Source of the DNA: Squalus acanthias
Taxonomy: Eukaryota
Direction: 5' to 3'
Assembly (NCBI GenBank): GCA_030390025.1
Contig: CM059432.1
Coordinates: 4,898,001 to 4,962,000, forward strand
Length of the DNA stretch: 64,000 nt
A program made the position numbers and the translations under genes. The notes under the pieces are model-generated. The model was not told the origin of the DNA, searched no databases, and was given only the letters and a program-made list of their open reading frames with translations. Shown here in pieces: positions 2,258 to 56,118 of the stretch (position 1 is the first letter of the stretch; every line of letters starts with the position of its first letter).

Positions 2258-2259
2258 AG

Positions 2260-21100: not shown

Positions 21101-22385
21101 TTACAAAAGGTAACTCATGCTTGACTAATCTACTGGAATTTTTTGAGGATGTAACTGGTAAAATAGATAAGGGAGAACCAGTGGAAGTGGTGTATTTGGA
21201 CTTCCAAAAGGCTTTTGATAAGGTCCCGCATAAGAGATTAGCATGTAAAGTTAAGGCACATGGGATTGGGGGCAAGGTATTGACTTGGATAGAGAACTGG
21301 TTGGCAGATAGAAAGCAAAGAGTTGGAATAAACGGGTCTTTTTCCGAGTGGCAGGCAGTGACTAGTGGGGTACCGCAGGGATCGGTCCTTGGACCCCAGC
21401 TATTCACAATATATATTAATGATCTAGACAAGGGAACTAGATGTAATATCTCCAAGTTTGCAGATGACACAAAACTGGGTGGGAGTGTGTGCTGCGAGGA
21501 GGATGCCGAGAAACTCCAGGATGATTTGGACAGGTTGGGTGATTGGGCAGAAGCGTGGCAGATGCAATATAACGTGGATAAATGCGAGGTTATCCACTTT
21601 GGTGTCAAAAACAGAAAGGCAGATTATTATCTGAATGGCAATAGATTGGGAGAAGGGGAAGTGCAACGAGACCTGGGTGTCATTGTGCACCAGTCGCTGA
21701 AGGTAAGCATGCAGGTGCAGCAGGCGGTTAAGGCGGCAAATGGTATGTTGGCCTTCATAGCGAGAGGGTTTGAGTACAGGAACAAGGATGTCTTGCCGCA
21801 GTTGTACAGGGCCTTGGTGAGACCACACCTTGATTACTGTGTGCAGTTTTGGTCGCCTTATCTGAGGAAGGATGTTCTTGCCATGGAAGGAGTTCAGCGA
21901 AGATTCACAAGGCTGATACCTGGGATGGCAGGAATGACATATGAAGAGAGATTGGGTCGATTGGGCTTATACTCGCTGGAGTTTAGAAGAATGAGAGGGG
22001 ATCTCATTGAAACTTATAAAATTCTGACAGGACAGGACAAACTAGATGCAGGAAGGATGTTCCCGATGGTCGGGGAGTCCAGAACCAGGGGTCACAGTCT
22101 AAGGATAAGGGGTAAGCCATTTAGAAATGAGGAGGAATTTCTTCACCCAGAGAGTGGTGAACCTGTGGAATTCTCTACCACAGAAGGTAGTAGAGGCCAA
22201 TTCATTAAATATATTCAAGAAGGAGTTGGATATATTTCTTAAGGCTAAAGGGATCAAGGGATATGGGGAGAAAGCAGGGACAGGGTACTGAATTTGGATG
22301 ATCAGCCATGATCGCATTGAATGGTGGAGCAGGCTCGAGGGGCCGAATGGCCTACTCCTGCTCCTATCTTCTATAATTCTATGAT
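18150..22385 (+). mobile_element. Near-full-length HER1-like CR1 LINE: ORF1 (zinc-finger start plus SGNH esterase) and ORF2 (APE endonuclease plus RT); frameshifted and interrupted
   Basis: ORF1 motifs IVIGDSIVRG, CLPGARVKDV, VHIGTNDIG and DGLHL. APE motifs LNARSIRNK, IGITETW, GGGVAL, IMGDF and SDH. RT ORF at 20320-22242, 3' UTR to about 22385, and an insertion at 19881-20210. Confidence 0.93.
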
Positions 22386-29102: not shown

Positions 29103-32100
29103 ATAGAATCATAGAATGGTTACAGCACAGGAGGCCGCCATTCAGCCTGTGCCGGCTCTCTGCAAGAGCACCTCAGCTAGTCCCACTCCCCCGCCCTTTC
29201 CTGGTAGCCCTGCAAAAAATTTCCTTCAGGTACTTATCCAACTCCCTTTTGAAAGCCACGATTGAGTCTGCCTCCACCACCCTTTCAGGCAGTGCATTCC
29301 AGATCCTAACCACTCGCTACGTAAAAACATTTTTACATAGAAACATAGAAGATAGGAGCAGGAGTAGGCCATTCGGCCCCTCGAGCCTGCTCCGCCATTC
29401 GATGAGATCATGGCTGATCATCCAAACTCAGTACCCTGTACCTGCCTTCTCCCCATATCCCTTGATCCCTTTAGCTTTAAGAAATATATCTAACTCATTC
29501 TTGAATATATTTAATGACTTGGCCTCAACTACCTTCTGTGGTAGAGAATTCCACAGGTTCACCACTCTCTGGGTGAAGAAATTCTTCCTCATTTCTGTCC
29601 TAAATGGCTTACCCCTTATCCTTAGATTATGACCCCTGGTTCTGGACTCTCCAACCATCGGGAACATTCTACCTGCATCTAGTTTGTCCAGACCGGTCAG
29701 AATTTTATATGTTTCGATGAGATCCCCTCTCATTCTTCTATACTCCAGCGAGTATAAGCCCAATCTCTCCTCATATGTCATTCCTGCCATCCCAGGTATC
29801 AGCCTTGTGAATCTTCGCTGAACTCCTTCCATGGCAAGAACATCCTTCCTCAGATAAGGCGACCAAAACTGCACACAGTACTCAAGGTGTGGTCTCACCA
29901 AGGCCCTGTACAACTGCAGCAGGACATCCCTGTTCCTATACTCAAACCCTTTCGCTATGAAGGCCAACATACCATTTGCGTTCTTCACTGCCTGCTGCAC
30001 CTGCATGCTTACCTTCAGCGACTGGTGAACAACGACACCCAGGTTTCGTTGCACTTCCCCTTCTCCCAATCTATTGCCATTCAGATAATAGTCTGCCTTT
30101 CTGTTTTTGACACCAAAGTGGATAACCTCGCATTTATCCACGTTATATTGCATCTGCCACGCTTCTGCCCACTCACCCAACCTGTCCAAATCATCCTGGA
30201 GTTTCTCAGTATCCTCCTCGGAGCACACACGCCCACCCAGCTTTGTGTCATCTGCAAACTTGGAGATATTACATTTAGTTCCCTTATCCAGATCATTAAT
30301 GTATATTGTGACTAGCTGGGGTCCAAGGACCGATCCCTGCGGTACCCCACTAGTCACTGCCTTACACTCGGAAAAAGACTCATTAATTCCTACTCTCTGC
30401 TTTCTGTCCGCCAACCAGTTCTCTATCCAAGTCAATACATTGCCCCCAATCCCATGTGCCTTAACTTTACACGCTAATCTCTTATGCGGGACCTTATCGA
30501 AAGCCTTTTGAAAGTCCAAATACACCACATCTACTGGTTCTCCCTTATCTATTTTCCCAGTTACATCCTCAAAAAATTCCAGGAGATTAGTCAAGCACGA
30601 TTTACCTTTTGTAAATCCATGTTGACTTTTCCATATGTCTCCTTTGGTTCTTCTGCCAATCACCTTAAATCTGTGTCCTCTGTTTCTTGAACCTTCCACC
30701 AATGGGAACAGTTTCTCTCTATCTACTCTGTCCAGACCCCTCATGATTTTGAACACCTCTATCGAATCTCCTCTCAACCTTTCTGCTTGAAGGAGAACAA
30801 CCCCAGCTTCTCTAGTCTATCCATGTAACTGAAGTCCCTCATCCCTGGAATCATTCTCGTAAATCTTTTCTGCACCCTCTCTAAGGCCTTCACATCCTTC
30901 CTAAAGTGCGATGCCCAGAATTGGACACAATTCTCCAGTTGAGGCCGAACCAGTGTTTTATAAAGGTTCGTCATAACTTCCTTGCTTTTAAAAGAAAGAA
31001 AAAAAGTCTTGCATTTCTATAGCGCCTTTTACAACCACCGGACGTCTCAAAAGGGCTTTACAGCCAATGAAGTACTTTTGGAGTGTAGTCACTGTTGTAA
31101 TGTGGGAAACGCGGCAGCCAAATTGCGCACAGCAAGCTCCCACAAACAGCAATGTGATAGTGACCAGATAATCTGTTTTGTTATGTTGATTGAGGGAAAA
31201 TATTGGCCCAGGACATCAGGGATAACTCCCCTGCTCTTCTTCGAAATAGTACCATGGGATCTTTTACATCCACCTGAAAGCAGACGGTGCCTTGGTTCAA
31301 CGTCTCATCCGAAAGACGGCACCTCCGACAGTGCAGCACTCCCTCGGTACTGCACTGGAGTGTCAGCCTAGATTTATGTACTCAAAGTCCCTGGAGTGGG
31401 ACTTGAACCCACAACCTTCTGACTCAGAGGCGAGTGTGCTACCCAACTGAGCCACAGCGGACACTCCATATACTCTATGCCTCTATTTATGCAGCCCAGG
31501 ATCCCATATGCTTTTTTAACCACTTTCTCAACCTGCCCTGCCACCTTCAATGATTTGTGCACATATACCCCCAGGTCTCTCTGTTCATGCACCCCCTTTA
31601 GGATTGTACCCTTTAGTTTATATTGCCTCTCATCATTCTTCCTACCAAAATGTATCACTTCGCACTTTTCTGCGTTAAATTTCATCTGCCACATGTCCGC
31701 CCATTTCACCAGCCTGTCTATGTCCTCTCGAGATATCTGCGCTCCTCTAATTCTGCCCTCTTGAGCATCCCTGATTATAAATCGCTCAACCTTTGGTGGC
31801 CGTGCCTTCTGTTGCCTAGGCCCTAAGCTCTGGAATTCCCTGCCTAAACCTCTCCGCCTCTCTTTCCTCCTTTAAGACGCTCCTTAAAACCTACCTCGTT
31901 GACCAAGCTTTTGGTCACCTGTCCTGATTTATCCTCCTGTGGCTCGGTGTCAATTTTCTTGTCTTACAATACTCCTGTGCAGCGCCTTGGGACTTTTTAC
32001 TACGTTAAAGGCGCAATATAAATACAAGTTGTTGAAGTCTGTCACTATCCACTATACTTCCAAGTTTTGTGTCATCTGCAAATTTTGAAATTGTGCCCTG

Positions 32101-32310: not shown

Positions 32311-34339
32311 TCTCCCAATCTCCCTTCTTGTGGAAAGGAAGTCTGATGAGCCATTTCTTTCAACAGGGATAGAGAAGAACATGCGGTAGCAATGTAAAGA
32401 ATTTCCCAAACACTTGAAGCAGAGGAAAGTACCTGGTGTTGGTAATTGGGTCTTTGTTAAATTTGAATGTATAGCATCACATTGAGGAGGTCTTCTTTGC
32501 CCAACTGACTTTGCTGCCGAGAGCCCTCAAAATGAATTCCAAAAGAATGGTCATCCTTGAGTTGGCCCATAACTTTGAGATTCTGCCATAACTTGTCAGA
32601 CCTCTAACTTCCTTGCCAAACAGACCTTTGTTATTAAAATGCAGTTCAAGTAGCTTCAATCATAGCTCCACTGGGAGGTCAGAAATTCATAACCAATCAT
32701 GTCAGCATTAAGCACGTATTAAACAGGAACTCATACACTTAGCGCAAAAGGCATCAGCCATAACTTGCTGCTGCATCAAGGGACATTGGAAGTGCATTTA
32801 GTACAAGGCTTGGGTCAGTGCTCATCATGCCAAGCCTTACGCTCATTTAATATTGAAGATGCAATTTGTAAACCTGAACGTTTCCACCAAGCTCAGGTTA
32901 CAGATAGTATCAACTTCACGGACTACCCTCCTCCAAAACAAATGTTCTCACAGTAATTACCCCAGACTGCTGATCGTTGACCATCTGTAAAATTGTTTTT
33001 TGATAGACTCAGATGGAAAGCATTAAACAGTAAGTATAATGGTAATCTGGTCTTGATCAAAGTTACAGACTTAAATAGACTGACTTTTTAATCCTTTTCC
33101 AGTTTCTCCCCACTGTTCCTGAAGGCATCAATTCCCACTGGAATATGGGTCCACGAGTGCTGCCTTTTAAGTCTAGCCAACAATTGTCAGTAGCTTATTC
33201 ATCCAGGGCCCCTACCAGCAACCCTCACCAACTCCAAATAAACCAACAATCGGATCTGGGAACAGCCTGGTTCATAAGGCCTAATTTCACACTCATTAGT
33301 GTCCGTACCACGGGACCCAGCAGAGGAACAATTTATACTTTACTGAAATATTAGATTGCCGTCTCCCTTCTCACTGCACGTACATCTCAACTCCAAGTAG
33401 CAGTCAGCAATAATGAAAAGAAGAATGAAGCAGCAGGTGGGTTTCCATGTTAATGTATACAAGGGAAAGAAAAAGCTCCCACAGGATATTACATTGCAAC
33501 GAATGTGTCTGCTATTGGTGAGGTTGACAGCTCTGTTACATCACATGTGACCTGGCTGGCTAAACAGAAACATAATTAGTTTGTGTCATGAGGCACAATT
33601 AGCCCAGTGATCATCAGTGCTAATCTCAAGAGAATGCTAATAAATTCTACAACTTTTCTTTCTCAAGTCCATAGGCCATTTTTCCAACACCCAGGTTCTC
33701 TGACCAAAAAAGCCATCATAAGAACCTAAGAATGTAAGAATTAGGAGCCATATGACCCCTCGTGCCTGCTCCGCCATTCAATAAGATCATGGCTGATCTT
33801 CGACCTCAACTCCACTTTCCTGCACTATCCCCATATCCAGCGATTCCCCTAGAATCCAAAAATCTCTCTCAGCCTTGAATATACTCAACGGCTGAGCATC
33901 CACAGCCCTCTGGGGTAGAGAATTCCAAAGATTCACAACCCTCTGAGTGAAGAAATTCCTCCTCCTCGTAGTCTTAAATGGCCGACCCTTTATCCTAAGA
34001 GTATGCCCCCTAGTTCTAGACTCTCTAGCCAGGGAAACAACCTCTCAGCAACTACCCTGTCAATCCCCCTCAAAATCTTATATTTCAATGAGATCACCTC
34101 TCATTCTTCTAAACTCCATGAGCGTATAGGCCCAATCTATTCAAACTCATACCTGGTTAATAATTATAATTGCATTTATACAAAATTTCTGATGAATGGT
34201 AGGATACTGAGAAGTGTAGAGGAACAAGAGGGACCTTGGAGTACATGTCCACAGATCCCTGAAGGTAGCAGGCTATATTCCCTCTATGCTGCGCGGTAAA
34301 AGAAACGGTCTGCGCACTTGGCTCAGGCTCACAGCGGGG

Positions 34340-34560
34340 GGCTTTAATAACACAGCAGCACAGCCCCGGCCGAGAAAAGGATCCAATCGGGGAGAAGGGG
34401 CGGGGCCTCACCCGCCCTGACCAGCAGCCCGCTCCACCAATCAACACCCAAACTTCTGTGACTGGCGCCGACTCTAACCAATAGCAAGGGGCGGGGGAGG
34501 GTGGGTCCTGAGGATTCGCCAATAGCAGGTGAGAGGGGGCGGGTGCTGGATGACTTCCCC
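34340..34560. promoter_or_regulatory. CpG-rich promoter with four CCAAT boxes and three GC boxes (copy 2 at about 45708-45928)
   Basis: CCAAT at 34383, 34437, 34478 and 34519. GGGGCGGG at about 34397, 34488 and 34536. TATTAAA on the minus strand at 34343-34349. Confidence 0.65.
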
Positions 34561-36279
34561 CCCCCCCCATGCCTGAACCGCTCTCGGTCTGCGGGCCGGT
34601 AGGAGCGGTGTGTGTCCCATTGTGTGATAGAAGATGTTTGACAGGCCGGCAGATCCCCAGGCCGGAGCAGCAGGATGGAGAGCAGGAGGGAGGTGTTCAC
34701 CAGGGCAAATGGGACAGTACGCCGGCAAGACGCGAGCAGCGAGTGTAGCGTGCACAGTTAGTGAGTGTGCCCTTGCAGCGCTGTGGGACGTTCGGTTTCT
34801 CTGTAATACTGCCGTGTTCTAGCATTTAAGACTTGCCTCCCTCCCACCTCTTACTTCGGCATTGACTGATTATTAAAGCATAGTTTTTTAAAATAATTCA
34901 TAAAGACTTTTTGCACCGAACAAACTTTTATCACCAAGTTTAATGTGCACAGAATCTGCATTATTATCACATTGCCATTTGTGGGAGCTTGCTGTGCGCC
35001 AATTGGCTGCCGTGTTTCCCACATTACAACAGTGACTACACTCCAAAAAAGTACTTCATTGGCTGTAAAGCGCTTTGAGACGTCCGGTGGTCGTGAAAGG
35101 CGCTATAGAAATGCAAGTCTTTCTTTCTTTCATTAAAACTGTAATGAATAAATCCTGGGCCAAACACAAAAGCATGGTGAATACCCTTTGGTTCAACGGC
35201 AGCGGCTGACCATTAAACTCTGCTTAAACTCAAAGGTTAGTTAAATTACACAACCCCCTCTCTCCAAAATTCATGAATATTGCTGCTCTCCCTTACACCT
35301 TTGTACCGCTAGCTAGCGGCAGCTTTCAAATAAAGCAGTACTTTGTTATGCTGCTCGAGTGTGTTGCATTTCACAGAAAAGAGAAGGAAAAAGCCAGTAC
35401 AATTAAGGGTTCACCTGTCACGAATTATTATCGCCTTTCTCCACCAGCCTGACAACCGTGATTAAAAAAAAATTAAAAATGCCGTATCTAATTGCTTTTA
35501 TTTCGTAAACCGCTGGAAAGAAGAGAAAAAAAATAAGTTTCTGAAAATTGAGAGAGCTTAATGGCGCATGGATAGTCATTGTCAACATGCTCTGGTTAAT
35601 CTGCCTTTTGATTCCCTTGAGTCTGATTGAACTATGTATTTACATCCAGTGCCAGAGTGGATGCAACAACCAAATTGGACTGTTATAACCAGGGCTAGAA
35701 TTGGGGATGTGTTTCAATGGGGCTTCAATGCAATCAACGTGGAAATGTGAGTTGCCTCATCTTCCCCCAACTCCCTCCAACACCCAACAAAAAAAGTTAT
35801 ACAAAATAAACCAATCAAAATTTAGAAAAGCAAAGTAAAATCAGTTGGAAACAAGATAAAATTCATCAAAAGACAAAATAAACCCATCGAAAAAAAAAAA
35901 TTTAAAAAGCAAAAACAAAATAAAAACGGCCAAAAACAAGATAAAAACATCAAAAAAGCAAACTAAATCAAAAACAAAGCAAGTGCTAAATCAAAATTTA
36001 TATGGTTAAAGAATATTGGATAAAATATTTTATGTCCATTCCATTTGTATGTTTGTATGATATAAGTCTGCTGTTACAACTTTACTTTTCACTTATTGTG
36101 CAAGTTTGAGTGGGATTTAGAGACAAAAATAATGAAAACATAAGAAAATAAAAAGGAATACAGTAATTTGCCATAATGCAATTCTTAAAAAGTTCCCCAA
36201 CTCCCCCTGCCCATCATCCTGGGCCTGGAACCCCCGCCATACCCGAACTTGCCTTTGGGCTTGATAAAAGATATCAGAT

Positions 36280-37915
36280 AGAATCATAGAAATTTACAGC
36301 ACAGAAGGAGGCCACTCGGCCCATCTTGTCCGTGCTGGCCGACAAAGAGCTATCCACCCTAATCCCACTTTCCAGCTCTTGGTCTGTAGCCCTGCAGGTT
36401 ATGGCACTTCAAGTGTATATCCAAGTACTTTTTAAATGTGATGAGGGTTTCTGCCTCTACCACCCTTTCAGTCAGTGAGTTCCAGACCCCCACCACCCTC
36501 TGGGTGAAAAGATTTCTCCTCAACTCCCCTCTAAACCTTCTACCAATTACTTTAAATCTCTGCCCCCTGGATATCAACCCCTCTGCTAAAGGAAATAGGT
36601 CCTTCCTATCCACGCTATCTAGGCCTCTCAATTTTACACACCTCAATTAGGTCTCCCCTCAGCCTCCTCTGTTCCAAAGAAAACAACCCCAGCTTATCCA
36701 ATCTTTCCTCATAGCTAAAATTCCCCAGCCCAGGCAACATCCTCGTAACTCTCCTCTGCACCCCCTCTAATGCAATCACATCCTTCCTGTACTCTAGCTG
36801 TGGCCTAACTAGTGTTTTATACAGTTCAAGCATAACCACCCGGCTCTTCTATTCTATGCCTCGGCTAATAAAGGCAAGTATCCCGTATGCCTTCTTAACC
36901 ACCTTATCTACCTGTCCTGCTACCTTCAGGGATCTGTGGACATGCATTCCAACGTCCCTCTGATCCTCTGCACTTCTCAGTGTCCTACCATTTATTGTGT
37001 ATTCCCTTGCCTTGTTAGCCCTCCCCAAATGCATTACCTCACACTTCTCCGGATTGAATTCCATTTGCCACTGTTCTTCCCACCAGACCAGTGCATTGAT
37101 ATCTTCCTGCAGTCTACAGCTTTCTTCTTCATTATCAACCACACGGAAAATTTTTGTATCATCTGCAAACTTCTTAATCATACTTCCTACATTCAAGTCC
37201 AAATCATTGATATATACCACAAAAAGCAAAGGACCCAGTACTGAGCCCTGCGGAACCTCACTGGAAATAGCCTTCCAGTCACAAAGTCACCCTTCGACCA
37301 TTACCCTTTGTTTCCTGCCTCTGAGCCAATTTTGGATCCAACTTGCTACTTTGCCGTGGATCCCATGGGCTTTTACTTTCATGACCAGTCTGCCATGCGG
37401 GACCTTATCAAAAGCCTTACTAAAATCCATATAGGCTACATCAAACGCACTACCCTCATCGACCCTCCTTGTTACCTCCTCAAAAAATTCAATCAAGATC
37501 AATCATACAGCATAGGTGGAGGCCATTTGCCCAGTCGTGCTTGCGCCGGCTCTCTGGTAGAGCTATCCAATTAGTCCCATTCCACTGCTCTTTCGCCACA
37601 ACCCTGCAAATTTTTCCTTTTCAAATATTTATCCAATTCCCTTTTGAAAGTTAATATTGAATCTGCTTCCGCAGCCCGTTCAGGCAGTGCATTCCAGATC
37701 ACAACAACTCGCTGTGTTAAAAAAAAATTCTCATCTCTGGTTACCGACCCTCCCGCCAGTGGAAACAGTTTCTCCTCATTTACAAAACCCCTCAAAATTT
37801 TGAACACCTCTATTAAATCTCCTCTTAACCTTCTCTGCTCTAAGGAGAACAATCCCAGCTTCTTTAATCTCACCAGCTAACTGAAGTCACTCATCCCTGG
37901 TAAAATTCTAGTAAA
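36280..37915 (-). mobile_element. Two CR1 fragments inserted in the hAT element (copy 2 at about 47646-49281)
   Basis: ORFs 36359, 36615, 36849, 37287 and 37571 are RT or C-terminal pieces. Confidence 0.85.
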
Positions 37916-38775
37916 TTAATTGGCACAATGAACGATCAGAATTTTCTGTTGTTGTTGTTAACTGCCCATGGACAAAAATGTCGCACTCAGAGGAGTTTGT
38001 CGCCCGACCAGTACTAATAAAAATTAGAGGGAACATTGGTAGCAGGACAGGTAGATTAGGTGGTTAAGAAAGCATACGGGATATTTTCCTTTATTAGTTA
38101 AGGCATAGAAGGGAGGTTATGCTTGAACTGTTAGGCCACAGCTAGAGTACTGCATACAGATCTGGTCACCGCATTACAGGAAAGATGTGACTGCACGAGA
38201 GAGGGTACAGAGGAGATTTACGAGGATGTTGCCAGGACTGGAGAATTTTAGCTATGAGGAAAGATTGGATAGGCTGGGGTTGTTTTCTTTGGAACAGAGG
38301 AGAGATTTAATTGAGGTGTATAAAATTATGAGGGGCCTAAATAAAGTGGACAGGAAGGACCTATTTCGCTTAGCAGAGGGGTCAATAAACAGGGGGCATA
38401 GATTTAAAGTAATTGGTAGAAGAATTAGAGGAGAGTCTAGAAGAACTTTTTTCACCCAGCGAGTGGTAGGGGTCTGGAACTCCTCAGCACCTTCTGAAGG
38501 GCAATTAGGGATGGGCAATAAATGCTGGCTTTGCCAGCGATGCCCACATCCCAGGAACGAATATTTAAAAAAACTCATTGCCTGAAAGGGTGGTAGAGGC
38601 AGAAACACTCATCGTATTTAAAAAGTATTTGGATATGCACTTGAAGTGCCGTAACCTACAGGGCTACGGACCAGGAGCTGGGAAGTGGGATTACGCTGGA
38701 TAGCTCTTTTTCGGCTGGCACAGACACGATGGGCTGAATGGCCTCCTTCTGTGCCATAAATTTCTATGATTCTAT

Positions 38776-41004
38776 GGCCCGGATTTTGTGTTCCCCATGA
38801 CGGCGTACACTGAGCGTACGCCATCGTAAGTCTTGTAAAAGGCCCAAGTTCCGGGTTTCCGCATGTGCTGCGCATGCGTGAAAACCCAGAACGTGCAATC
38901 TGTCAAGGTTCGCCTTGACAGATCTACCGCACCAACCCAACAATCACTTTCGCTGGTGCAGGGTTGGGCTAGTTGCCCAACTACTGCCCAAAAAATGCCC
39001 ACAAAAACTTTATGCCTGGTAAAAGCAGGCATAGGCTCTGCTTTCACCAGCATGAGGGTTAATATAAATCTTAAATTAAAAAATTAAAAATCATGCATAA
39101 ACATTTAAAATTAGTATATGTAAATTTTGGCCTGGATTAAAAAAAATTTTGAAAAATAATTTTAAACATATTATAAATGCTTTATTGGAGGGACTTTTAA
39201 TTAAATTGGAAAATGGGAACATTTATTTTTATTCCAGTTGTATAAATTATTTTATTTGGGGATTCCTCATATGCTTATAGGATTACATAGGATATACGGC
39301 ACAGAAACAGGCCATTCGGCCCAACCAGTCCGTGCCGGCGTTTATGTTCCACTCGAGCCTCCTCTCGTCTTTCCTCATCTAACTCCATTAGCATAACCCT
39401 CTATTCCCTTCTCCCTCATATGGTTATCTAGCCTCCCCTTAAATGCATCAACCACTCCCTGTGATAGCGAGTTCCACATTCTCACCACTCTTTGGGTAAA
39501 GAAGTTTCTTCTGAATTCCCTATTTGATTTCTTGGTGACTATCTTATATTGATGGCCTCTAGTTATGCTCTTCCCCACAAGTGGAAACATTCTCTCTGTG
39601 TCCACTCTATCAAAACCTTTCATAATTTTAAAGACCTCTATTAGGTCACCCCTCAGCCTGTTTCAAGAGAAAAGAGACTCAGCCTGTTCATCCTTTCATG
39701 ATAGGTATACCCTCGCATTTCTGGTATCATCCTTGTAAATCTTCTCTGCACCCTCTCCAGTGCCTCTATATCCTTTTTATAATATGGCGACCAGAACTGT
39801 ACCCAGGTCCGATGCAGGTTTAGCATAACTTCCCTACTTTTCAATTCTATCCCTCTAGAAATAAACCCTAGTGCTTGGTTTGCTTTTTTTATGGCCTTGC
39901 TAACCTGTGTCGCAACTTTTAGTGATTTGTGTATTTGTACTCCTAGATCCCTTTGTTCCTCTACCTCACCCACACTCGCACCCTCCAAGTAATAAGTGAC
40001 CTCCCTATTCTTTCCACCAAAATGTAATTCCTCACATTTATTTGTGTTGAACTTCATGTGTCAATTATATGCCCATTCTGCAAGTTTATTAATGTCCTGT
40101 AATTTGTCGCAGTCTTCCTCAGTATTAACTATCCCCCCCAATTTGGTGTCATCCGTAAATTTAGAAATTGTGTTTTTGATTCCAACGTCTAAATCGTTAA
40201 CATAAATTGTGAACAGTGGTCCCAGCACTGATCCTTGTGGAACACCACTACCCACCTTCTGCCACTGTGAATAGCTACCCTTTACTCCTACTCTCTGCTT
40301 TCTGTCTTGAAGCCAGTTCGTAAATGGAATCCCCTTAAGCATATTAGGAAGGCAGCAACTGCTGCCAGCGAAGTTGAAGTAGTTGCGCATGCGCAGTTTG
40401 TGTTTATTTGGTTGCTCGCTAACTGAAAAGAAAGAGAAAGGAGGGGAGGAGGTGGTGAAAAGCGATCGCTGCTGCCGAACACAGCCACGTCAGGAAAAGA
40501 AAATCTGTGCCAGAAAAACACAGCAAACGTCAATTTTTATTAATTTTCTTCTCCTTTCCCTTCAGATGGAGCTTGCGCTCCGTACAAATAAATCTCCGCA
40601 ATCCCCCCCAGCGAAATTACTATACAGTAATACTTAAATCAACCCGCGTTACTACGCATTATTAAACCAACCCATAGCTCCATAGATTTAGGCATGCGAT
40701 ATGACTATATTATTATGCATTCATACTTAAACCACCACAAATTTATGCGCAGAACGCTTCTGCGCAGCTTCCAGTCGTTGGCAGCAGTTACCGGGTTCGT
40801 TGGCAGCAGTCACTCTGCATTAGGAATCCTCCTTTCTGATTGGAGGACCTGGCCCACGCGATTCTGAATGGCCTGCGTCCTTGGGCCTTTACTGCAGGCC
40901 CAGGACCCGAAGTCTCCGAAAGGTAGGTGCGGCTTTTTAAAAAAATATAAAATCGGGTTGGAGGCGTACTCCGGAGGTACGCCACCGAATGCAAATTCCA
41001 GCCC
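38776..41004. mobile_element. Harbinger-like non-autonomous element with an internal CR1 insertion at about 39280-40320 (copy 2 at 50142-52370)
   Basis: Imperfect TIRs GGCCCGGATTTTG / CAAATTCCAGCCC. Both ends carry a subterminal hairpin GGCGTAC-N-GTACGCC. It sits within a LINE (ttctatga)n tail; the TSD is not clean. Confidence 0.5.
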
Positions 41005-41504
41005 AGTGATTCTATGAATGGCTTCCCTCATCCTTAGTTATCTTGTTGGTTTGGATATTCGGGACACTATTAAAATTTGCGCTGGACGAAAAGCAGGGAG
41101 TATGGCTAACTCTGAAGAGTGTTCAGGGAAATATGTACAGCTTAGAAGATTGGGCAGATAGATGTCAGATGAAATTTAATGCAGAGATGGCATATTTCCT
41201 CTCCTTATTCTCCCTCCCAAAATGTAACGAAATGGTTAAACTTAAGAGATTTAGGGATTCAGATATACAAGTCTTCAAAATTGGGAGGACAAGTTGATTA
41301 AGCAGTAAAACAAAATAGACAAGCCTGAGTTTTATAAATAGGGGTACTGAGTACGAAATTGAAAGGCTTAATGCTTAAACTACACAAATTACTGGTTAGA
41401 CCACTCCTGGAATATTGTGTCTAGTTTTAGATTCACTAAGATTATAGCAGAAATTAGAGGCTTTGGTTATTAGGAGAGATTAGAGACACAGGGGCTCTTT
41501 TCAT

Positions 41505-41935
41505 CAGGAACAGTAGCATAGTAGTTATGTTACTGGACTAGTAATCCAGAGGCCTAGACTACTTATCCGGAGACATGAGTTCAAATCCCACCACGGCAGC
41601 TGGGGAATTTAAATTCAGTTAATTAAATTTAAAAAAAAGCTAGCATCAGTAATGGTGAGCATGAAACTACCGGATTGCTGTAAAAACCCATCTTTAGGAA
41701 GGAAATCTGCCGTCCTTACCCAGTCTGGCCTACATGTAACTCCAGACCCACAGCAATGTGGTTGACTCTTAACTGAAATGGCCGAGCGAGACTCTCAGTT
41801 GTACCAAACTGCAGCAACACGGACTGCAGCGGTTCAAGAAGGCGGCTTTCCACCACCTTCTCAAGAGCAAGTAGGGATGGGCAATAAATGATGGCCTCGC
41901 CAGCAACGCCTACATCCCATGAATGAATAAAACAA
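41505..41935 (+). mobile_element. tRNA-derived SINE sharing its 3' tail with the 13605-16070 LINE family (copy 2 at about 52871-53286)
   Basis: Head tagcatagtagttatgttactggactagtaatcc...gagttcaaatccc; tail ctgcagcggttcaagaaggcggc...gggatgggcaataaatg. Confidence 0.75.
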
Positions 41936-42759
41936 ATTACACTAGTGAAGGCTGAGGGAGATCTTTTAGGTGGTGTTCAAAATTATGAACAGAAACTAGA
42001 GAGCATATATTTACGACCAAAAAAAGGTTAGAACTATTATTTTTTTTTTTTAAAGAGGGGTTTTAGGACGTGGAATATACAAGAAACAGCGGTGAAAGAA
42101 GGAGCCATATAAGCTTTTAAAGGGAAGTGGATAAATACTTTAAAAAAAATAAACAGGAATGCAGCCACAGGCACAATGGCTGGATTAGTGCTGTAACATT
42201 CTAAGGCACTAACTAATCTGTTGAAAACCCAAATGTCATTTTCATTTGTAAAAATCTATAATATAGATAAAGCATAAAAGTGCTTGAAATTAACCAGAAT
42301 ACATAATTTTTAATGTAAAAAAAATTACCAGGGAAGCATGTCCAAGGACACCCTAGAAATGCTCCACTAATTTTGTGTCTTCAACATTTGGATAACCCCT
42401 TCATTTTATTATAATTTGAATAGGGCCTTTTTGGTTTACTTCTATTGGAAGAAAAAAACCATGACCTCTACCACCTAGAAGGACAAGGGCAGCAGGCACA
42501 TGGGAACACCACCACCTCCTAGTTCCCCTCCAAGTCACACACCATCCTGACTTGGAAATATATTGCCGTTCCTTCATCGTCACTGGGTCAAAATCTTGGA
42601 ACTCCCTCCCTAACAGCACTGTGGGAGCACCTTCACCACACGGATTGCAGCGGTTCAAGGCGGCGGCTCACCACCAACTTCGAGGGCAATTAGGGATGGG
42701 CAATAAATGCTGGCCTTGCCAGTGACGCTCACATCCCAGGAACAAGTAAAAAAAAAGGC

Positions 42760-44300
42760 AAAATCATGAATGACATTCCCTATGACTGCAACCAGTGTAT
42801 TATTCCTCCTTGCCACCTCCACAGCATTCAAAACAGATGGCCACACCATCCACCTCCAGTGCCTCTCCTCAGTCACCAAGCTCCATGGGACTGCCCTTGC
42901 AGGTTTTCGTTTTACCTATCAGATGTAGCCAGTGCATTTCCAACAATAATTTCACTTTCATCGCCCATACATCACATCCTCTAGGGGCCCTCAAGGATCT
43001 ATTTTTGGCCCTCTCCCATTCCTTATCTACATGCCATCCCTTGGCAACAACTGGCGCAGGGTGCGCTTTCACATGTGTGCTGATGATACCCAGCTCTACC
43101 TCTGCCACCACTTGTCTCAATCCCTCCACTGCCTCTGTGCTGTCAAACTACTCATCTAACATTGTGTCTTGGACGAATCACATCTTCCTCCAGCTCAACA
43201 TCAGGAAAACTTACACCATCATCTTGGGCCCCGACCACAAAACTCTGGTCCCTTGTCACCGATTGCATATCTATGCCTGTTCATTCTCTCAAGCTGAAGA
43301 AAAACATTTTCAATCTCGACATCCTCATTGACCTGGAGCAGAGTTAATTAAACCACATATCCTATCCATCACAAGACCACTTACTGCCACCTCCACGGCA
43401 AGGCCTGGCTCCACCCCTTGATTCTGAATACCATATACAGACATCCAGGCCTTTGCCATTTTCAGACTCTACGATTTCAATGCTGTTCTGGCCAGCCTCC
43501 CATCCTCCATGCTCTGTAAACTTCAGCTTATCCTACCCTGCACCAAGTGGTGCTCACTGGCCTACATTGGTTCCCAGTCCCCAATGTCTCCAGTCTAACA
43601 TTACCCTTGTGTTTAAATCCCTTCATGGCCTTGCCTCTCCTTTATCTCTTCATCCTCCTCCAGCCCTACAGACACTTCCCACCCACCCCCAAAAGAACTC
43701 TCCACTCTTCCGACTGGCCCCTTGTACATCACCCTCCCTTCACCTCACCATTGATGACTGGACCGTCTGCCATCTAGGCCCCATGCTCTGAAATTGCCTC
43801 TCTAAACCCCGTCGCTTCTCTAGCCTTCCGCTCCTCTGTTAAACCTGCCTTAAAACCAACCACTTTGTCAAACTTTTGGTCACCTAATATCTCCTTCTTT
43901 GGCTCAGTGGCCATTTTTGTCCAATTATGCCTCTATGAAGCACCTTAGGATGTTTTTCTACATTAAGAAGGTACTTGTATATAAAACGCAAGTTGTTGTT
44001 GTTACTGCTGTGTTACCTTCAAACTCGACTACTCCAATGCTCAATTTGCTGTCTTTCCATCCTCCATAAACTGCAATGTATCCAAAACTCTGCTCGTCTC
44101 CTGTCCCACACCAAGTCTTGCTTGGCCATCACCCCTTCCTAGGTGACCTACAGAAACTCCCTGCCCTTCAATGCATTAATGTACAAGTCCTTGTCTATAA
44201 ATTCCTCAATATTCTTGCTGCATCCTATCTGTGGAATGCTTTAGCCCGATTTCCTGTTCGTAACACTCCATTCTTCGGTCTTTGGCCTTCTCTACGTCTA
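42760..44300 (+). mobile_element. Degenerate L2 LINE fragments (copy 2 at about 54112-55650)
   Basis: ADDTQLY-like gctgatgatacccagctctacct, plus LHWFPV and FKSLHGLA motifs. Confidence 0.7.
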
Positions 44301-45640
44301 CCCACCACTGATCACAGAATATACCTGCAGCCTGAAGTTACAAAGCCTGTACAACTGCTTGCTTTTTGCCTCAGGACCAGTCTTGAATTGGTTGGATTTT
44401 TTTTTAGGATTAATGTGGCAGCTTTGTTTTTTTAAGTTAAGTTAAGTTAAGTTTTTTAATCCTTTTCCAGTTTCTCCCCACTGTTCCTGAAGGCATCAAT
44501 TCCCACTGGAATATGGGTCCACGAGTGCTGCCTTTTAAGTCTAGCCAACAATTGTCAGTAGCTTATTCATCCAGGGCCCCTACCAGCAACCCTCACCAAC
44601 TCCAAATAAACCAACAATCGGATCTGGGAACAGCCTGGTTCATAAGGCCTAATTTCACACTCATTAGTGTCCGTACCACGGGACCCAGCAGAGGAACAAT
44701 TTATACTTTACTGAAATATTAGATTGCCGTCTCCCTTCTCACTGCACGTACATCTCAACTCCAAGTAGCAGTCAGCAATAATGAAAAGAAGAATGAAGCA
44801 GCAGGTGGGTTTCCATGTTAATGTATACAAGGGAAAGAAAAAGCTCCCACAGGATATTACATTGCAACGAATGTGTCTGCTATTGGTGAGGTTGACAGCT
44901 CTGTTACATCACATGTGACCTGGCTGGCTAAACAGAAACATAATTAGTTTGTGTCATGAGGCACAATTAGCCCAGTGATCATCAGTGCTAATCTCAAGAG
45001 AATGCTAATAAATTCTACAACTTTTCTTTCTCAAGTCCATAGGCCATTTTTCCAACACCCAGGTTCTCTGACCAAAAAAGCCATCATAAGAACCTAAGAA
45101 TGTAAGAATTAGGAGCCATATGACCCCTCGTGCCTGCTCCGCCATTCAATAAGATCATGGCTGATCTTCGACCTCAACTCCACTTTCCTGCACTATCCCC
45201 ATATCCAGCGATTCCCCTAGAATCCAAAAATCTCTCTCAGCCTTGAATATACTCAACGGCTGAGCATCCACAGCCCTCTGGGGTAGAGAATTCCAAAGAT
45301 TCACAACCCTCTGAGTGAAGAAATTCCTCCTCCTCGTAGTCTTAAATGGCCGACCCTTTATCCTAAGAGTATGCCCCCTAGTTCTAGACTCTCTAGCCAG
45401 GGAAACAACCTCTCAGCAACTACCCTGTCAATCCCCCTCAAAATCTTATATTTCAATGAGATCACCTCTCATTCTTCTAAACTCCATGAGCGTATAGGCC
45501 CAATCTATTCAAACTCATACCTGGTTAATAATTATAATTGCATTTATACAAAATTTCTGATGAATGGTAGGATACTGAGAAGTGTAGAGGAACAAGAGGG
45601 ACCTTGGAGTACATGTCCACAGATCCCTGAAGGTAGCAGG

Positions 45641-48600
45641 CTATATTCCCTCTATGCTGCGCGGTAAAAGAAACGGTCTGCGCACTTGGCTCAGGCTCAC
45701 AGCGGGGGGCTTTAATAACACAGCAGCACAGCCCCGGCCGAGAAAAGGATCCAATCGGGGAGAAGGGGCGGGGCCTCACCCGCCCTGACCAGCAGCCCGC
45801 TCCACCAATCAACACCCAAACTTCTGTGACTGGCGCCGACTCTAACCAATAGCAAGGGGCGGGGGAGGGTGGGTCCTGAGGATTCGCCAATAGCAGGTGA
45901 GAGGGGGCGGGTGCTGGATGACTTCCCCCCCCCCATGCCTGAACCGCTCTCGGTCTGCGGGCCGGTAGGAGCGGTGTGTGTCCCATTGTGTGATAGAAGA
46001 TGTTTGACAGGCCGGCAGATCCCCAGGCCGGAGCAGCAGGATGGAGAGCAGGAGGGAGGTGTTCACCAGGGCAAATGGGACAGTACGCCGGCAAGACGCG
46101 AGCAGCGAGTGTAGCGTGCACAGTTAGTGAGTGTGCCCTTGCAGCGCTGTGGGACGTTCGGTTTCTCTGTAATACTGCCGTGTTCTAGCATTTAAGACTT
46201 GCCTCCCTCCCACCTCTTACTTCGGCATTGACTGATTATTAAAGCATAGTTTTTTAAAATAATTCATAAAGACTTTTTGCACCGAACAAACTTTTATCAC
46301 CAAGTTTAATGTGCACAGAATCTGCATTATTATCACATTGCCATTTGTGGGAGCTTGCTGTGCGCCAATTGGCTGCCGTGTTTCCCACATTACAACAGTG
46401 ACTACACTCCAAAAAAGTACTTCATTGGCTGTAAAGCGCTTTGAGACGTCCGGTGGTCGTGAAAGGCGCTATAGAAATGCAAGTCTTTCTTTCTTTCATT
46501 AAAACTGTAATGAATAAATCCTGGGCCAAACACAAAAGCATGGTGAATACCCTTTGGTTCAACGGCAGCGGCTGACCATTAAACTCTGCTTAAACTCAAA
46601 GGTTAGTTAAATTACACAACCCCCTCTCTCCAAAATTCATGAATATTGCTGCTCTCCCTTACACCTTTGTACCGCTAGCTAGCGGCAGCTTTCAAATAAA
46701 GCAGTACTTTGTTATGCTGCTCGAGTGTGTTGCATTTCACAGAAAAGAGAAGGAAAAAGCCAGTACAATTAAGGGTTCACCTGTCACGAATTATTATCGC
46801 CTTTCTCCACCAGCCTGACAACCGTGATTAAAAAAAAATTAAAAATGCCGTATCTAATTGCTTTTATTTCGTAAACCGCTGGAAAGAAGAGAAAAAAAAT
46901 AAGTTTCTGAAAATTGAGAGAGCTTAATGGCGCATGGATAGTCATTGTCAACATGCTCTGGTTAATCTGCCTTTTGATTCCCTTGAGTCTGATTGAACTA
47001 TGTATTTACATCCAGTGCCAGAGTGGATGCAACAACCAAATTGGACTGTTATAACCAGGGCTAGAATTGGGGATGTGTTTCAATGGGGCTTCAATGCAAT
47101 CAACGTGGAAATGTGAGTTGCCTCATCTTCCCCCAACTCCCTCCAACACCCAACAAAAAAAGTTATACAAAATAAACCAATCAAAATTTAGAAAAGCAAA
47201 GTAAAATCAGTTGGAAACAAGATAAAATTCATCAAAAGACAAAATAAACCCATCGAAAAAAAAAAATTTAAAAAGCAAAAACAAAATAAAAACGGCCAAA
47301 AACAAGATAAAAACATCAAAAAAGCAAACTAAATCAAAAACAAAGCAAGTGCTAAATCAAAATTTATATGGTTAAAGAATATTGGATAAAATATTTTATG
47401 TCCATTCCATTTGTATGTTTGTATGATATAAGTCTGCTGTTACAACTTTACTTTTCACTTATTGTGCAAGTTTGAGTGGGATTTAGAGACAAAAATAATG
47501 AAAACATAAGAAAATAAAAAGGAATACAGTAATTTGCCATAATGCAATTCTTAAAAAGTTCCCCAACTCCCCCTGCCCATCATCCTGGGCCTGGAACCCC
47601 CGCCATACCCGAACTTGCCTTTGGGCTTGATAAAAGATATCAGATAGAATCATAGAAATTTACAGCACAGAAGGAGGCCACTCGGCCCATCTTGTCCGTG
47701 CTGGCCGACAAAGAGCTATCCACCCTAATCCCACTTTCCAGCTCTTGGTCTGTAGCCCTGCAGGTTATGGCACTTCAAGTGTATATCCAAGTACTTTTTA
47801 AATGTGATGAGGGTTTCTGCCTCTACCACCCTTTCAGTCAGTGAGTTCCAGACCCCCACCACCCTCTGGGTGAAAAGATTTCTCCTCAACTCCCCTCTAA
47901 ACCTTCTACCAATTACTTTAAATCTCTGCCCCCTGGATATCAACCCCTCTGCTAAAGGAAATAGGTCCTTCCTATCCACGCTATCTAGGCCTCTCAATTT
48001 TACACACCTCAATTAGGTCTCCCCTCAGCCTCCTCTGTTCCAAAGAAAACAACCCCAGCTTATCCAATCTTTCCTCATAGCTAAAATTCCCCAGCCCAGG
48101 CAACATCCTCGTAACTCTCCTCTGCACCCCCTCTAATGCAATCACATCCTTCCTGTACTCTAGCTGTGGCCTAACTAGTGTTTTATACAGTTCAAGCATA
48201 ACCACCCGGCTCTTCTATTCTATGCCTCGGCTAATAAAGGCAAGTATCCCGTATGCCTTCTTAACCACCTTATCTACCTGTCCTGCTACCTTCAGGGATC
48301 TGTGGACATGCATTCCAACGTCCCTCTGATCCTCTGCACTTCTCAGTGTCCTACCATTTATTGTGTATTCCCTTGCCTTGTTAGCCCTCCCCAAATGCAT
48401 TACCTCACACTTCTCCGGATTGAATTCCATTTGCCACTGTTCTTCCCACCAGACCAGTGCATTGATATCTTCCTGCAGTCTACAGCTTTCTTCTTCATTA
48501 TCAACCACACGGAAAATTTTTGTATCATCTGCAAACTTCTTAATCATACTTCCTACATTCAAGTCCAAATCATTGATATATACCACAAAAAGCAAAGGAC

Positions 48601-49404
48601 CCAGTACTGAGCCCTGCGGAACCTCACTGGAAATAGCCTTCCAGTCACAAAGTCACCCTTCGACCATTACCCTTTGTTTCCTGCCTCTGAGCCAATTTTG
48701 GATCCAACTTGCTACTTTGCCGTGGATCCCATGGGCTTTTACTTTCATGACCAGTCTGCCATGCGGGACCTTATCAAAAGCCTTACTAAAATCCATATAG
48801 GCTACATCAAACGCACTACCCTCATCGACCCTCCTTGTTACCTCCTCAAAAAATTCAATCAAGATCAATCATACAGCATAGGTGGAGGCCATTTGCCCAG
48901 TCGTGCTTGCGCCGGCTCTCTGGTAGAGCTATCCAATTAGTCCCATTCCACTGCTCTTTCGCCACAACCCTGCAAATTTTTCCTTTTCAAATATTTATCC
49001 AATTCCCTTTTGAAAGTTAATATTGAATCTGCTTCCGCAGCCCGTTCAGGCAGTGCATTCCAGATCACAACAACTCGCTGTGTTAAAAAAAAATTCTCAT
49101 CTCTGGTTACCGACCCTCCCGCCAGTGGAAACAGTTTCTCCTCATTTACAAAACCCCTCAAAATTTTGAACACCTCTATTAAATCTCCTCTTAACCTTCT
49201 CTGCTCTAAGGAGAACAATCCCAGCTTCTTTAATCTCACCAGCTAACTGAAGTCACTCATCCCTGGTAAAATTCTAGTAAATTAATTGGCACAATGAACG
49301 ATCAGAATTTTCTGTTGTTGTTGTTAACTGCCCATGGACAAAAATGTCGCACTCAGAGGAGTTTGTCGCCCGACCAGTACTAATAAAAATTAGAGGGAAC
49401 ATTG
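45641..49404. mobile_element. Non-autonomous hAT-type DNA transposon (copy 2)
   Basis: Same TIRs and TSD as copy 1, so it arose by the segmental duplication rather than by a second transposition. Confidence 0.85.
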
Positions 49405-52400
49405 GTAGCAGGACAGGTAGATTAGGTGGTTAAGAAAGCATACGGGATATTTTCCTTTATTAGTTAAGGCATAGAAGGGAGGTTATGCTTGAACTGTTAG
49501 GCCACAGCTAGAGTACTGCATACAGATCTGGTCACCGCATTACAGGAAAGATGTGACTGCACGAGAGAGGGTACAGAGGAGATTTACGAGGATGTTGCCA
49601 GGACTGGAGAATTTTAGCTATGAGGAAAGATTGGATAGGCTGGGGTTGTTTTCTTTGGAACAGAGGAGAGATTTAATTGAGGTGTATAAAATTATGAGGG
49701 GCCTAAATAAAGTGGACAGGAAGGACCTATTTCGCTTAGCAGAGGGGTCAATAAACAGGGGGCATAGATTTAAAGTAATTGGTAGAAGAATTAGAGGAGA
49801 GTCTAGAAGAACTTTTTTCACCCAGCGAGTGGTAGGGGTCTGGAACTCCTCAGCACCTTCTGAAGGGCAATTAGGGATGGGCAATAAATGCTGGCTTTGC
49901 CAGCGATGCCCACATCCCAGGAACGAATATTTAAAAAAACTCATTGCCTGAAAGGGTGGTAGAGGCAGAAACACTCATCGTATTTAAAAAGTATTTGGAT
50001 ATGCACTTGAAGTGCCGTAACCTACAGGGCTACGGACCAGGAGCTGGGAAGTGGGATTACGCTGGATAGCTCTTTTTCGGCTGGCACAGACACGATGGGC
50101 TGAATGGCCTCCTTCTGTGCCATAAATTTCTATGATTCTATGGCCCGGATTTTGTGTTCCCCATGACGGCGTACACTGAGCGTACGCCATCGTAAGTCTT
50201 GTAAAAGGCCCAAGTTCCGGGTTTCCGCATGTGCTGCGCATGCGTGAAAACCCAGAACGTGCAATCTGTCAAGGTTCGCCTTGACAGATCTACCGCACCA
50301 ACCCAACAATCACTTTCGCTGGTGCAGGGTTGGGCTAGTTGCCCAACTACTGCCCAAAAAATGCCCACAAAAACTTTATGCCTGGTAAAAGCAGGCATAG
50401 GCTCTGCTTTCACCAGCATGAGGGTTAATATAAATCTTAAATTAAAAAATTAAAAATCATGCATAAACATTTAAAATTAGTATATGTAAATTTTGGCCTG
50501 GATTAAAAAAAATTTTGAAAAATAATTTTAAACATATTATAAATGCTTTATTGGAGGGACTTTTAATTAAATTGGAAAATGGGAACATTTATTTTTATTC
50601 CAGTTGTATAAATTATTTTATTTGGGGATTCCTCATATGCTTATAGGATTACATAGGATATACGGCACAGAAACAGGCCATTCGGCCCAACCAGTCCGTG
50701 CCGGCGTTTATGTTCCACTCGAGCCTCCTCTCGTCTTTCCTCATCTAACTCCATTAGCATAACCCTCTATTCCCTTCTCCCTCATATGGTTATCTAGCCT
50801 CCCCTTAAATGCATCAACCACTCCCTGTGATAGCGAGTTCCACATTCTCACCACTCTTTGGGTAAAGAAGTTTCTTCTGAATTCCCTATTTGATTTCTTG
50901 GTGACTATCTTATATTGATGGCCTCTAGTTATGCTCTTCCCCACAAGTGGAAACATTCTCTCTGTGTCCACTCTATCAAAACCTTTCATAATTTTAAAGA
51001 CCTCTATTAGGTCACCCCTCAGCCTGTTTCAAGAGAAAAGAGACTCAGCCTGTTCATCCTTTCATGATAGGTATACCCTCGCATTTCTGGTATCATCCTT
51101 GTAAATCTTCTCTGCACCCTCTCCAGTGCCTCTATATCCTTTTTATAATATGGCGACCAGAACTGTACCCAGGTCCGATGCAGGTTTAGCATAACTTCCC
51201 TACTTTTCAATTCTATCCCTCTAGAAATAAACCCTAGTGCTTGGTTTGCTTTTTTTATGGCCTTGCTAACCTGTGTCGCAACTTTTAGTGATTTGTGTAT
51301 TTGTACTCCTAGATCCCTTTGTTCCTCTACCTCACCCACACTCGCACCCTCCAAGTAATAAGTGACCTCCCTATTCTTTCCACCAAAATGTAATTCCTCA
51401 CATTTATTTGTGTTGAACTTCATGTGTCAATTATATGCCCATTCTGCAAGTTTATTAATGTCCTGTAATTTGTCGCAGTCTTCCTCAGTATTAACTATCC
51501 CCCCCAATTTGGTGTCATCCGTAAATTTAGAAATTGTGTTTTTGATTCCAACGTCTAAATCGTTAACATAAATTGTGAACAGTGGTCCCAGCACTGATCC
51601 TTGTGGAACACCACTACCCACCTTCTGCCACTGTGAATAGCTACCCTTTACTCCTACTCTCTGCTTTCTGTCTTGAAGCCAGTTCGTAAATGGAATCCCC
51701 TTAAGCATATTAGGAAGGCAGCAACTGCTGCCAGCGAAGTTGAAGTAGTTGCGCATGCGCAGTTTGTGTTTATTTGGTTGCTCGCTAACTGAAAAGAAAG
51801 AGAAAGGAGGGGAGGAGGTGGTGAAAAGCGATCGCTGCTGCCGAACACAGCCACGTCAGGAAAAGAAAATCTGTGCCAGAAAAACACAGCAAACGTCAAT
51901 TTTTATTAATTTTCTTCTCCTTTCCCTTCAGATGGAGCTTGCGCTCCGTACAAATAAATCTCCGCAATCCCCCCCAGCGAAATTACTATACAGTAATACT
52001 TAAATCAACCCGCGTTACTACGCATTATTAAACCAACCCATAGCTCCATAGATTTAGGCATGCGATATGACTATATTATTATGCATTCATACTTAAACCA
52101 CCACAAATTTATGCGCAGAACGCTTCTGCGCAGCTTCCAGTCGTTGGCAGCAGTTACCGGGTTCGTTGGCAGCAGTCACTCTGCATTAGGAATCCTCCTT
52201 TCTGATTGGAGGACCTGGCCCACGCGATTCTGAATGGCCTGCGTCCTTGGGCCTTTACTGCAGGCCCAGGACCCGAAGTCTCCGAAAGGTAGGTGCGGCT
52301 TTTTAAAAAAATATAAAATCGGGTTGGAGGCGTACTCCGGAGGTACGCCACCGAATGCAAATTCCAGCCCAGTGATTCTATGAATGGCTTCCCTCATCCT

Positions 52401-55400: not shown

Positions 55401-56118
55401 CTGTCTTTCCATCCTCCATAAACTGCAATGTATCCAAAACTCTGCTCGTCTCCTGTCCCACACCAAGTCTTGCTTGGCCATCACCCCTTCCTAGGTGACC
55501 TACAGAAACTCCCTGCCCTTCAATGCATTAATGTACAAGTCCTTGTCTATAAATTCCTCAATATTCTTGCTGCATCCTATCTGTGGAATGCTTTAGCCCG
55601 ATTTCCTGTTCGTAACACTCCATTCTTCGGTCTTTGGCCTTCTCTACGTCTACCCACCACTGATCACAGAATATACCTGCAGCCTGAAGTTACAAAGCCT
55701 GTACAACTGCTTGCTTTTTGCCTCAGGACCAGTCTTGAATTGGTTGGATTTTTTTTTAGGATTAATGTGGCAGCTTTGTTTTTTTAAGTTATTGGTCAGC
55801 TTTTGCCACACACACACACAGTTGGTGCTATGCAACATCAGGATCCCTGATTTACAGTTAAATAAGATAAATCTCTGGTCATTATCACACTGCTGTTTGT
55901 GGGAGCTTGCTGTGCGCAGATTGGCTGCCGCGTTTCCTACATTACAACAGTGACTACACTCCAAATGTACTTCAATGGCTGTAAAGCGCTGTGGGACATC
56001 CTGAGGTCGTGAAAGGGACTATAGAAATCCAAGTCTCTCTTTATTAAAGAGCACAAAAGATGCTTGAGATATTTGCAGGACAATGTTTTATGATCATGAG
56101 TATTTACATTGAAACTAA

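Follow-up and report, generated by a model that had tools for sequence, protein, structure and literature searches.

The window analysed here is a stretch of 64,000 nucleotides of Squalus acanthias (assembly GCA_030390025.1, contig CM059432.1, positions 4,898,001 to 4,962,000 of the forward strand). Between positions 34273 and 38038 of this window lies a 3766-bp unit bounded by terminal inverted repeats (TIRs). This unit is a real but damaged copy of a cut-and-paste transposon from a small repeat family; it behaves like a non-autonomous hAT element and very probably is one. Just inside its left end stands a cluster of CCAAT and GC boxes, a putative promoter that is most likely the element's own leftover, common to the family.

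A damaged transposon copy inserted into a CR1 element

The octamer GTAGCAGG is repeated exactly on the forward strand at both flanks of the unit (34265-34272 on the left and 38039-38046 on the right). Inside the unit, a CR1 long interspersed element (LINE) copy of the same family as the flanks contains this octamer only once, on the opposite strand, and its neighbours there are 90% identical to both flanks. Since the octamer is single in an uninterrupted CR1 copy, the repeat is a genuine target-site duplication (TSD), made by insertion into a CR1 LINE. Comparison with the paralogous CR1 places the interrupted host fragment at 34192-38775 (34192-34272 plus 38039-38775, forward strand).

The left (5') TIR CTATATTCCCTCTA (34273-34286, forward strand) and the right (3') TIR CAATGTTCCCTCTA (38038-38025, reverse strand) are alike at 12 of 14 positions, and the exact TSD and TIRs that the original prediction drew around a 3.77-kb unit are confirmed. 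The outermost 20 nt on the right are identical to the consensus for right ends of the family. Relative to the family consensus CAATGTTCCCTCTA, the left TIR is changed at positions 2 and 5, and a further difference lies at position 15 just beyond the TIR; the left end has decayed to CTATA, and as the conserved A2 and G5 are gone, the window copy is probably immobile now. Sequence comparison with family left ends identifies a left subterminal region containing GCTGCGCGG (34287-34337, forward strand), and element positions 3-24 agree with family left-type ends at 20 of 22 positions. The right subterminal region (37917-38024, forward strand) is about 10 times as abundant as the promoter in DNA sequencing runs, as read at 38007.

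Nested retroelement DNA makes up 1824 of the 3766 bp (48%), leaving about 1940 bp of the element's own sequence. From left to right, the insertions are what we take to be the 3' tail of a high-copy short interspersed element (SINE) or LINE (approximately 34963-35140, forward strand; seven further matches in the window, and apparently missing from two relatives), a fragment that is presumably a CR1 LINE (36271-37509, reverse strand; same family as the CR1 hosting the element, 89% identical at the 3' end) and a second CR1 3' fragment found by repeat comparison within the window (37501-37916, reverse strand). Between the first two lies the multicopy family interior (35141-36270, forward strand), with a predicted exon at 35448-35746 and an A-rich tract at 35780-36000 and without a protein match. 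One CR1 family thus both hosts the element and supplies a copy nested in it, so the transposition of the element probably fell within the active period of that family. With A2 and G5 lost and a SINE and two CR1 pieces since inserted, the term mobile promoter cassette, used in the original prediction, is overstated for the window copy.

The element lies within a tandem duplication of 11.4 kb (33085-44439 and 44453-55791). The two halves are 99.8% identical, with 1 mismatch and 4 gaps, which fall mainly in short repeats; one 15-bp indel lies near 41808. The duplication either arose very recently or is an artefact of assembly, and it contains a second copy of the element (45641-49404, forward strand). 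We rejected this second copy as evidence of transposition, because its flanks and TSD are identical to those of the first and point to segment duplication or artefact rather than a jump. Neither the nested DNA, the mutated left TIR and the tandem duplicate nor the multicopy state of promoter and interior described below had been part of the original prediction.

The CCAAT/GC-box cluster

A motif search of the 5' part of the element locates four forward CCAAT boxes at 34383, 34437, 34478 and 34519 (span 34383-34523; spacing 54, 41 and 41 bp), together with GGGCGG at 34398, 34489 and 34537 (GC-box span 34398-34542). The four CCAAT and three GC boxes previously noted inside the left TIR are therefore present, and a fourth GC box in reverse orientation (CCGCCC, 34412) is added to them. 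The cluster lies 111-270 bp inside the left (5') end. In the 52.7 kb of window that remain once the duplicate is removed, it is the sole site with four CCAAT or three GC boxes per 160 bp. Among 5000 dinucleotide shuffles of 34273-34600, a region picked after the fact, four CCAAT boxes appeared in 0.28%, four GC boxes in 0.62% and both in none. CCAAT boxes 3 and 4 lie inside related 41-bp units (75% alike over 20 nt), and since this makes the motifs interdependent, the shuffle test gives them too much weight. The four CCAAT boxes and three GC boxes (plus the reverse one) exceed chance. By simple arithmetic, the 41-bp spacing corresponds to roughly four turns of the helix.

None of the four CCAAT boxes matches the strict NF-Y pattern, and a motif search of 34273-38038 returned no TATA box, which does not bear out the description of the cluster as a complete promoter. 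The CpG observed/expected ratio (o/e) of the promoter region is 0.62-0.66 compared with 0.42 window-wide, and TpG/CpA o/e of the cluster region is 1.05-1.15. The reported CpG retention in a CpG-poor window thus stands in part: it is modest, and three other stretches exceed it with values of 0.86-1.21. Twenty of the tested 200-bp windows satisfy o/e 0.6 and GC 0.5, and other repeats have higher CpG o/e. Downstream of the cluster, a CpG-enriched stretch is a candidate first exon by prediction only (34543-34760, forward strand), with an ATG in strong context at 34675, predicted splice donors at 34529 and 34761, and no protein match.

Relatives of the element in sequencing runs

Contigs from 4 of 21 listed sequencing runs were aligned to 34180-38120 at 80% likeness. 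Run X6 is from a different species from run X1; X1 contains 0.42 of the window's words and may not represent the exact locus. Variant sites were counted from 40 of 831 rows listed. At promoter site 34396, at least 15 contigs in X1 and at least 8 in X6 carry another letter, and at site 34372 at least 10 and at least 6. Interior sites among the rows listed have 4-12 differing contigs in X1 and 3-18 in X6. The summed depth divided by that of a typical single contig is 11-19 (X1) and 9-14 (X6) in the promoter, 7-19 (X1) and 11-21 (X6) in the interior, and 139 (X1) and 151 (X6) at 38007 near the right end; these ratios are rough, include alleles and do not equal copy number. Rough as they are, the similar depths of promoter and interior in both species show a small family (roughly 5-20 relatives) whose promoter and interior travel together, and many more elements that carry the right end. 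The original prediction had held that many TIR-bounded copies would indicate a native promoter, and the multicopy promoter and interior, comparable in the two species, lean that way.

The relatives are 5-16% diverged (15 pieces) and the nearest CR1 copies in the window 11-13%, similar values that fit neutral ageing. The rows listed include four variant rows for 34312-34640, each of them outside the CCAAT and GC cores. The interior of the relatives is gap-rich, with 41 gap letters in 534 bp. One X1 contig (record 1) joins the promoter to 34287, the left TIR edge. In one contig per species (X1 record 2 and X6 record 26), the match begins at 34338, in a G run, with 137 and 168 unmatched letters upstream; this boundary is possibly a capture junction or a subfamily indel. 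The match of X6 record 25 starts at 34321, following 34 unmatched letters.

The predicted exon at 35448-35746 contains three stops in its most protein-like frame. Two of these, at 35463 and 35559, are gone in a minority of DNA contigs and in one contig of a run guessed to be RNA. In the two runs guessed to be RNA, diverged relatives cover 35146-36046 and beyond, and one contig in each begins matching exactly at 35146 with further sequence upstream. In X17, a contig of depth equal to that of the contig starting at 35146 covers 34862-34873. These contigs suggest, from their alignment, that relatives lacking the SINE exist. They are not transcripts of the window copy, the runs may hold DNA, and with no cover at 34444-34575 they are uninformative on expression.

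The TIR end family and its polarity

Scanning metagenome contigs (4 of 64 parts) for the TIR yielded about 120 loci. Cadherin and kinase fragments adjoin TIR loci in these contigs, which points to animal DNA; the TIR pattern also matched once among viral contigs and five times among contigs of prokaryote genomes. The family, widespread in animals, has two asymmetric end types, one starting CAATGTTCCCTCTAAGCTG (86 of 151 ends) and the other CAATGTTCCCTCTAATTTTT (53 of 151). The right end of the window copy equals the CAATGTTCCCTCTAATTTTT-type consensus over 20 nt, and its left end resembles the CAATGTTCCCTCTAAGCTG type from position 3. Short elements of the family measure 147-382 bp, mostly 200-230 bp, and the GCGC-rich subterminal motif of the family is over by about position 65, ahead of the CCAAT/GC cluster.

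Among 30 family TIR pairs, 20 are flanked by 8-bp TSDs that differ at no more than one position, and in 13 the TSD is exact; the set takes in a few non-cognate pairings. In the flanks of the 151 family ends, T stands at position 2 in 60% and A at position 7 in 64% (nTnnnnAn type); the TSD of the window copy has the T at 2 and lacks the A at 7. The right end and the family consensus begin CAATG, fitting YARNG. In the accessible text of two sources, YARNG is given as a terminus of hAT elements in one (PMC3014272) but of P elements in the other (PMC2820524), so the motif alone cannot separate the superfamilies.

A distant family member, L042, has in order a left subterminal region, a peptide resembling the hAT dimerisation domain, a poly(A) signal and a TTTTT-type TIR. 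The peptide has an Atlas score of 0.93 with 197 shared features, and 14-41% of members in the three top-ranking clusters carry PF05699; Pfam itself made no call on it. The 8-bp TSD and the nTnnnnAn targets of the family support the hAT assignment made earlier, and this one peptide linked to the end family is hAT-like rather than P-like. Because the peptide reads toward the TTTTT-type end, the GCTGCGC end would be the 5' end, and the CCAAT/GC cluster would lie inside it, where a transposase promoter is expected, a polarity taken from the single distant element L042. Among the metagenome frames scanned, none encodes a full transposase with family ends. The TIR string is absent from the main text of the papers searched; Repbase, Dfam and supplements lay outside that search, and the family may be catalogued there.

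Four other TIR loci deserve mention. L006 (2466-4315) is an 1850-bp family member whose TSD is exact and whose interior contains a tandem repeat; it has no transposase match. L063, with five CCAAT/ATTGG motifs near its left end, was considered as a parallel to the cluster and set aside, being AT-rich and having neither a GC-box cluster nor a Pfam match. A weak hAT match at L052 (E 0.042) was discarded as evidence since it lies outside the closed 168-bp element. Finally, Chromo-domain, phospholipase A2-like and A32 ATPase-like matches beside a TIR end in L036 (about 3700-5900) suggest a Polinton-like element.

Searches for coding content and a host gene

A Pfam search of 34273-36281 in six frames, stops read as X, found no hAT transposase family, in line with the earlier remark that no transposase is recognisable, and no THAP domain or P transposase family. 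A THAP-like reading of 34750-34800 made by eye was dropped after this six-frame search came back without THAP. For three candidate peptides, no parent protein was found at E 0.001 among 1.84 billion proteins, and other searches gave none at E 1; the leads from an Atlas look-up of the exon peptide were all below 0.9. No Rfam family was found in 33085-44452.

The original prediction had placed the element inside a host intron. We could not substantiate this location: no host exon was identified from nine candidate translations in the window, none having a Pfam match better than E 0.2, in a search that left four other candidate frames outside. Elsewhere in the window, candidate exons with good splice scores and without a Pfam match lie at 4853-4926 (forward), 4818-4937 (reverse), 57562-57675 (reverse) and 60580-60784 (reverse).

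Origin of the promoter-like cluster

The choice offered by the original prediction, between a deletion derivative that kept its own promoter and a Pack-type capture, has shifted toward the first. We lean, by a modest degree, toward an ordinary non-autonomous hAT derivative that keeps its own predicted promoter. An internal deletion would have removed the coding region of an autonomous hAT, and the derivative would have retained both ends, the promoter and the 5' non-coding part. Transposase acting in trans may then have produced a few copies of this derivative, while shorter derivatives with the same right end grew about 10 times more numerous. The cluster would once have driven the family's transposase gene, with NF-Y predicted on the CCAAT boxes, Sp-family factors on the GC boxes and transcription directed inward. 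The window copy later took in the SINE and the two CR1 pieces.

Several observations weigh against this origin. We found no autonomous partner, and no transposase remnant in the 1.9 kb of the element's own sequence. The polarity that places the cluster at the 5' end hangs on L042 and its peptide uncalled by Pfam. X1 record 2 and X6 record 26 start at 34338, as a TIR-less parent locus would. A left end of 65 bp and a right end of 122 bp total about 190 bp, as long as the short elements of the family; with the far greater abundance of the right end, this fits cargo inside a small element. Two GC boxes occur in none of 51 metagenome left ends of at least 330 bp (from distant animals and mostly short elements). 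The layout of the interior resembles that of a gene, and two of the three exon stops are missing from some relatives. Anole hobo elements are, moreover, reported to take up genomic DNA in the text available from PMC3014272.

The strongest competitor, which we hold to be distinctly less probable, is a multicopy Pack-hAT. A hAT of about 190 bp would have captured a host NF-Y/Sp-type promoter with the first exon and first introns, at a junction near 34338 and before the split of the two sampled species, and would then have amplified to roughly 5-20 sites. The 34338 boundary common to one contig per species, the summed end lengths with a right end about 10 times more abundant, the missing transposase remnant, the arrangement of a strong-context ATG, the two donors and an internal exon, and the variants at 35463 and 35559 that remove two of its stops all argue for such a capture. 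There is precedent in Pack-hAT-N8_XT, described as taking CAPSL's 5' untranslated region (UTR) to three loci, and multicopy Pack-TIRs tend toward GC-rich DNA in the consulted part of the same survey (PMC8277862). Against it, the three candidate peptides lack a parent protein, and the gap letters in the relatives' interior indicate no coding constraint. The 34338 boundary, lying in a G run, could be a subfamily indel, and the other X1 contig continues to 34287. Multicopy Pack-TIRs are also rare among animals, 4 of 370 in that survey as excerpted (PMC8277862). The fuller proposition, that a shark hAT mini-element captured a host NF-Y/Sp promoter with first exons and spread it to 5-20 sites in several species, some copies still starting transcripts, seems to us unlikely.

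We regard it as improbable that the cluster is a 5' subterminal array grown by duplications of a 41-bp unit, serving transposase binding or nothing rather than transcription. Such an array would account for the likeness between the units of boxes 3 and 4, for the misfit of every CCAAT box to the strict NF-Y pattern and for the CpG depletion that accompanies the TpG/CpA values given above; hAT ends are, furthermore, described as bearing short subterminal repeats in the portion of PMC10368747 seen. Yet the cluster interleaves two motif types, its CCAAT boxes all share one orientation, the stretch that follows is richer in CpG and has an ATG and splice donors, and the subterminal motif of the family ends before the cluster. 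A one-off capture in the window copy alone is refuted by the multicopy promoter and interior in two species.

Comparison with known systems

Under the favoured origin as a deleted hAT derivative, the element has little significance as one ageing copy of a small non-autonomous family. Nothing about such families is unusual for a vertebrate: in the anole, families of non-autonomous hATs measuring 1.3-3.4 kb, mostly deleted autonomous elements, are described (PMC3014272, in the sections available). Like the anole hobo-N1 to N15_AC, the present family has an 8-bp TSD, YARNG at the intact end, a length of about 2 kb and tens of copies, and is transposase-less with pieces of other transposons inside. 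It differs in TIR sequence and in that the SINE and the first CR1 are apparently missing from some relatives; no promoter motif array is described for the anole elements in those sections (PMC3014272). It shares with Hermes the 8-bp nTnnnnAn target pattern in the end family and asymmetric left and right ends, whereas the TSD of the window copy has T2 and not A7 (PMC10368747, in the part consulted).

Two elements in the available text of PMC8277862, Pack-hAT-N8_XT and Ssk-FB4, are likewise TIR-bounded, lack a transposase, have a GC-rich interior resembling the 5' part of a gene and occur in several copies. A parent gene is identified for those and none was found here, so we do not class our element as a Pack-TIR. 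If capture were true, the family would resemble bat Helitrons in being a DNA transposon that spreads a promoter, 5' UTR and first exon, although Helitrons are rolling-circle elements without TIRs and their parent genes are identified (PMC4224331, as excerpted). Medaka Izanagi is also non-autonomous, with an 8-bp TSD, a nested LINE splitting the element and family-wide transcription-factor sites; unlike our element, which has no THAP match and no identified target gene, it is a P element by its THAP remnant and regulates dmrt1bY (PMC2820524, in the passages seen).

What the locus adds is a family of TIR transposons able to carry a textbook CCAAT/GC array at the 5' end. Judged from search listings, no paper describing such an array at the 5' end of a hAT was found in the literature searched. 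If capture were true, the family would belong to the few multicopy Pack-TIRs, would be dispersing a strong host promoter and would offer a natural series of one promoter at 5-20 genomic sites of known age.

Neighbouring features of the window

The 3' tail repeat of the same host CR1 contains a second TIR-bounded element (38776-41006, also present in the duplicate), with ends GGCCCGGATTTTG and GGGCTGGAATTTG, which we assume to be Harbinger-like. It holds a CR1 fragment, and its CpG o/e at 40340-40830 is 0.95, above that of the promoter studied here. Long open reverse-transcriptase frames of CR1-type LINEs lie at 164-2260 (reverse), 20287-22242 (forward) and 29428-30816 (reverse), with 698, 651 and 462 amino acids, so some CR1 copies are young. 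A CpG-rich tandem array with a unit of about 24 bp, noticed in translations, occupies about 2900-3660. A CpG-rich element (o/e 1.21) at about 63385-63712, some 330 bp long and with CAGGAAACTTTCGTTTATCCGG-like ends on both sides, is probably another small TIR element.

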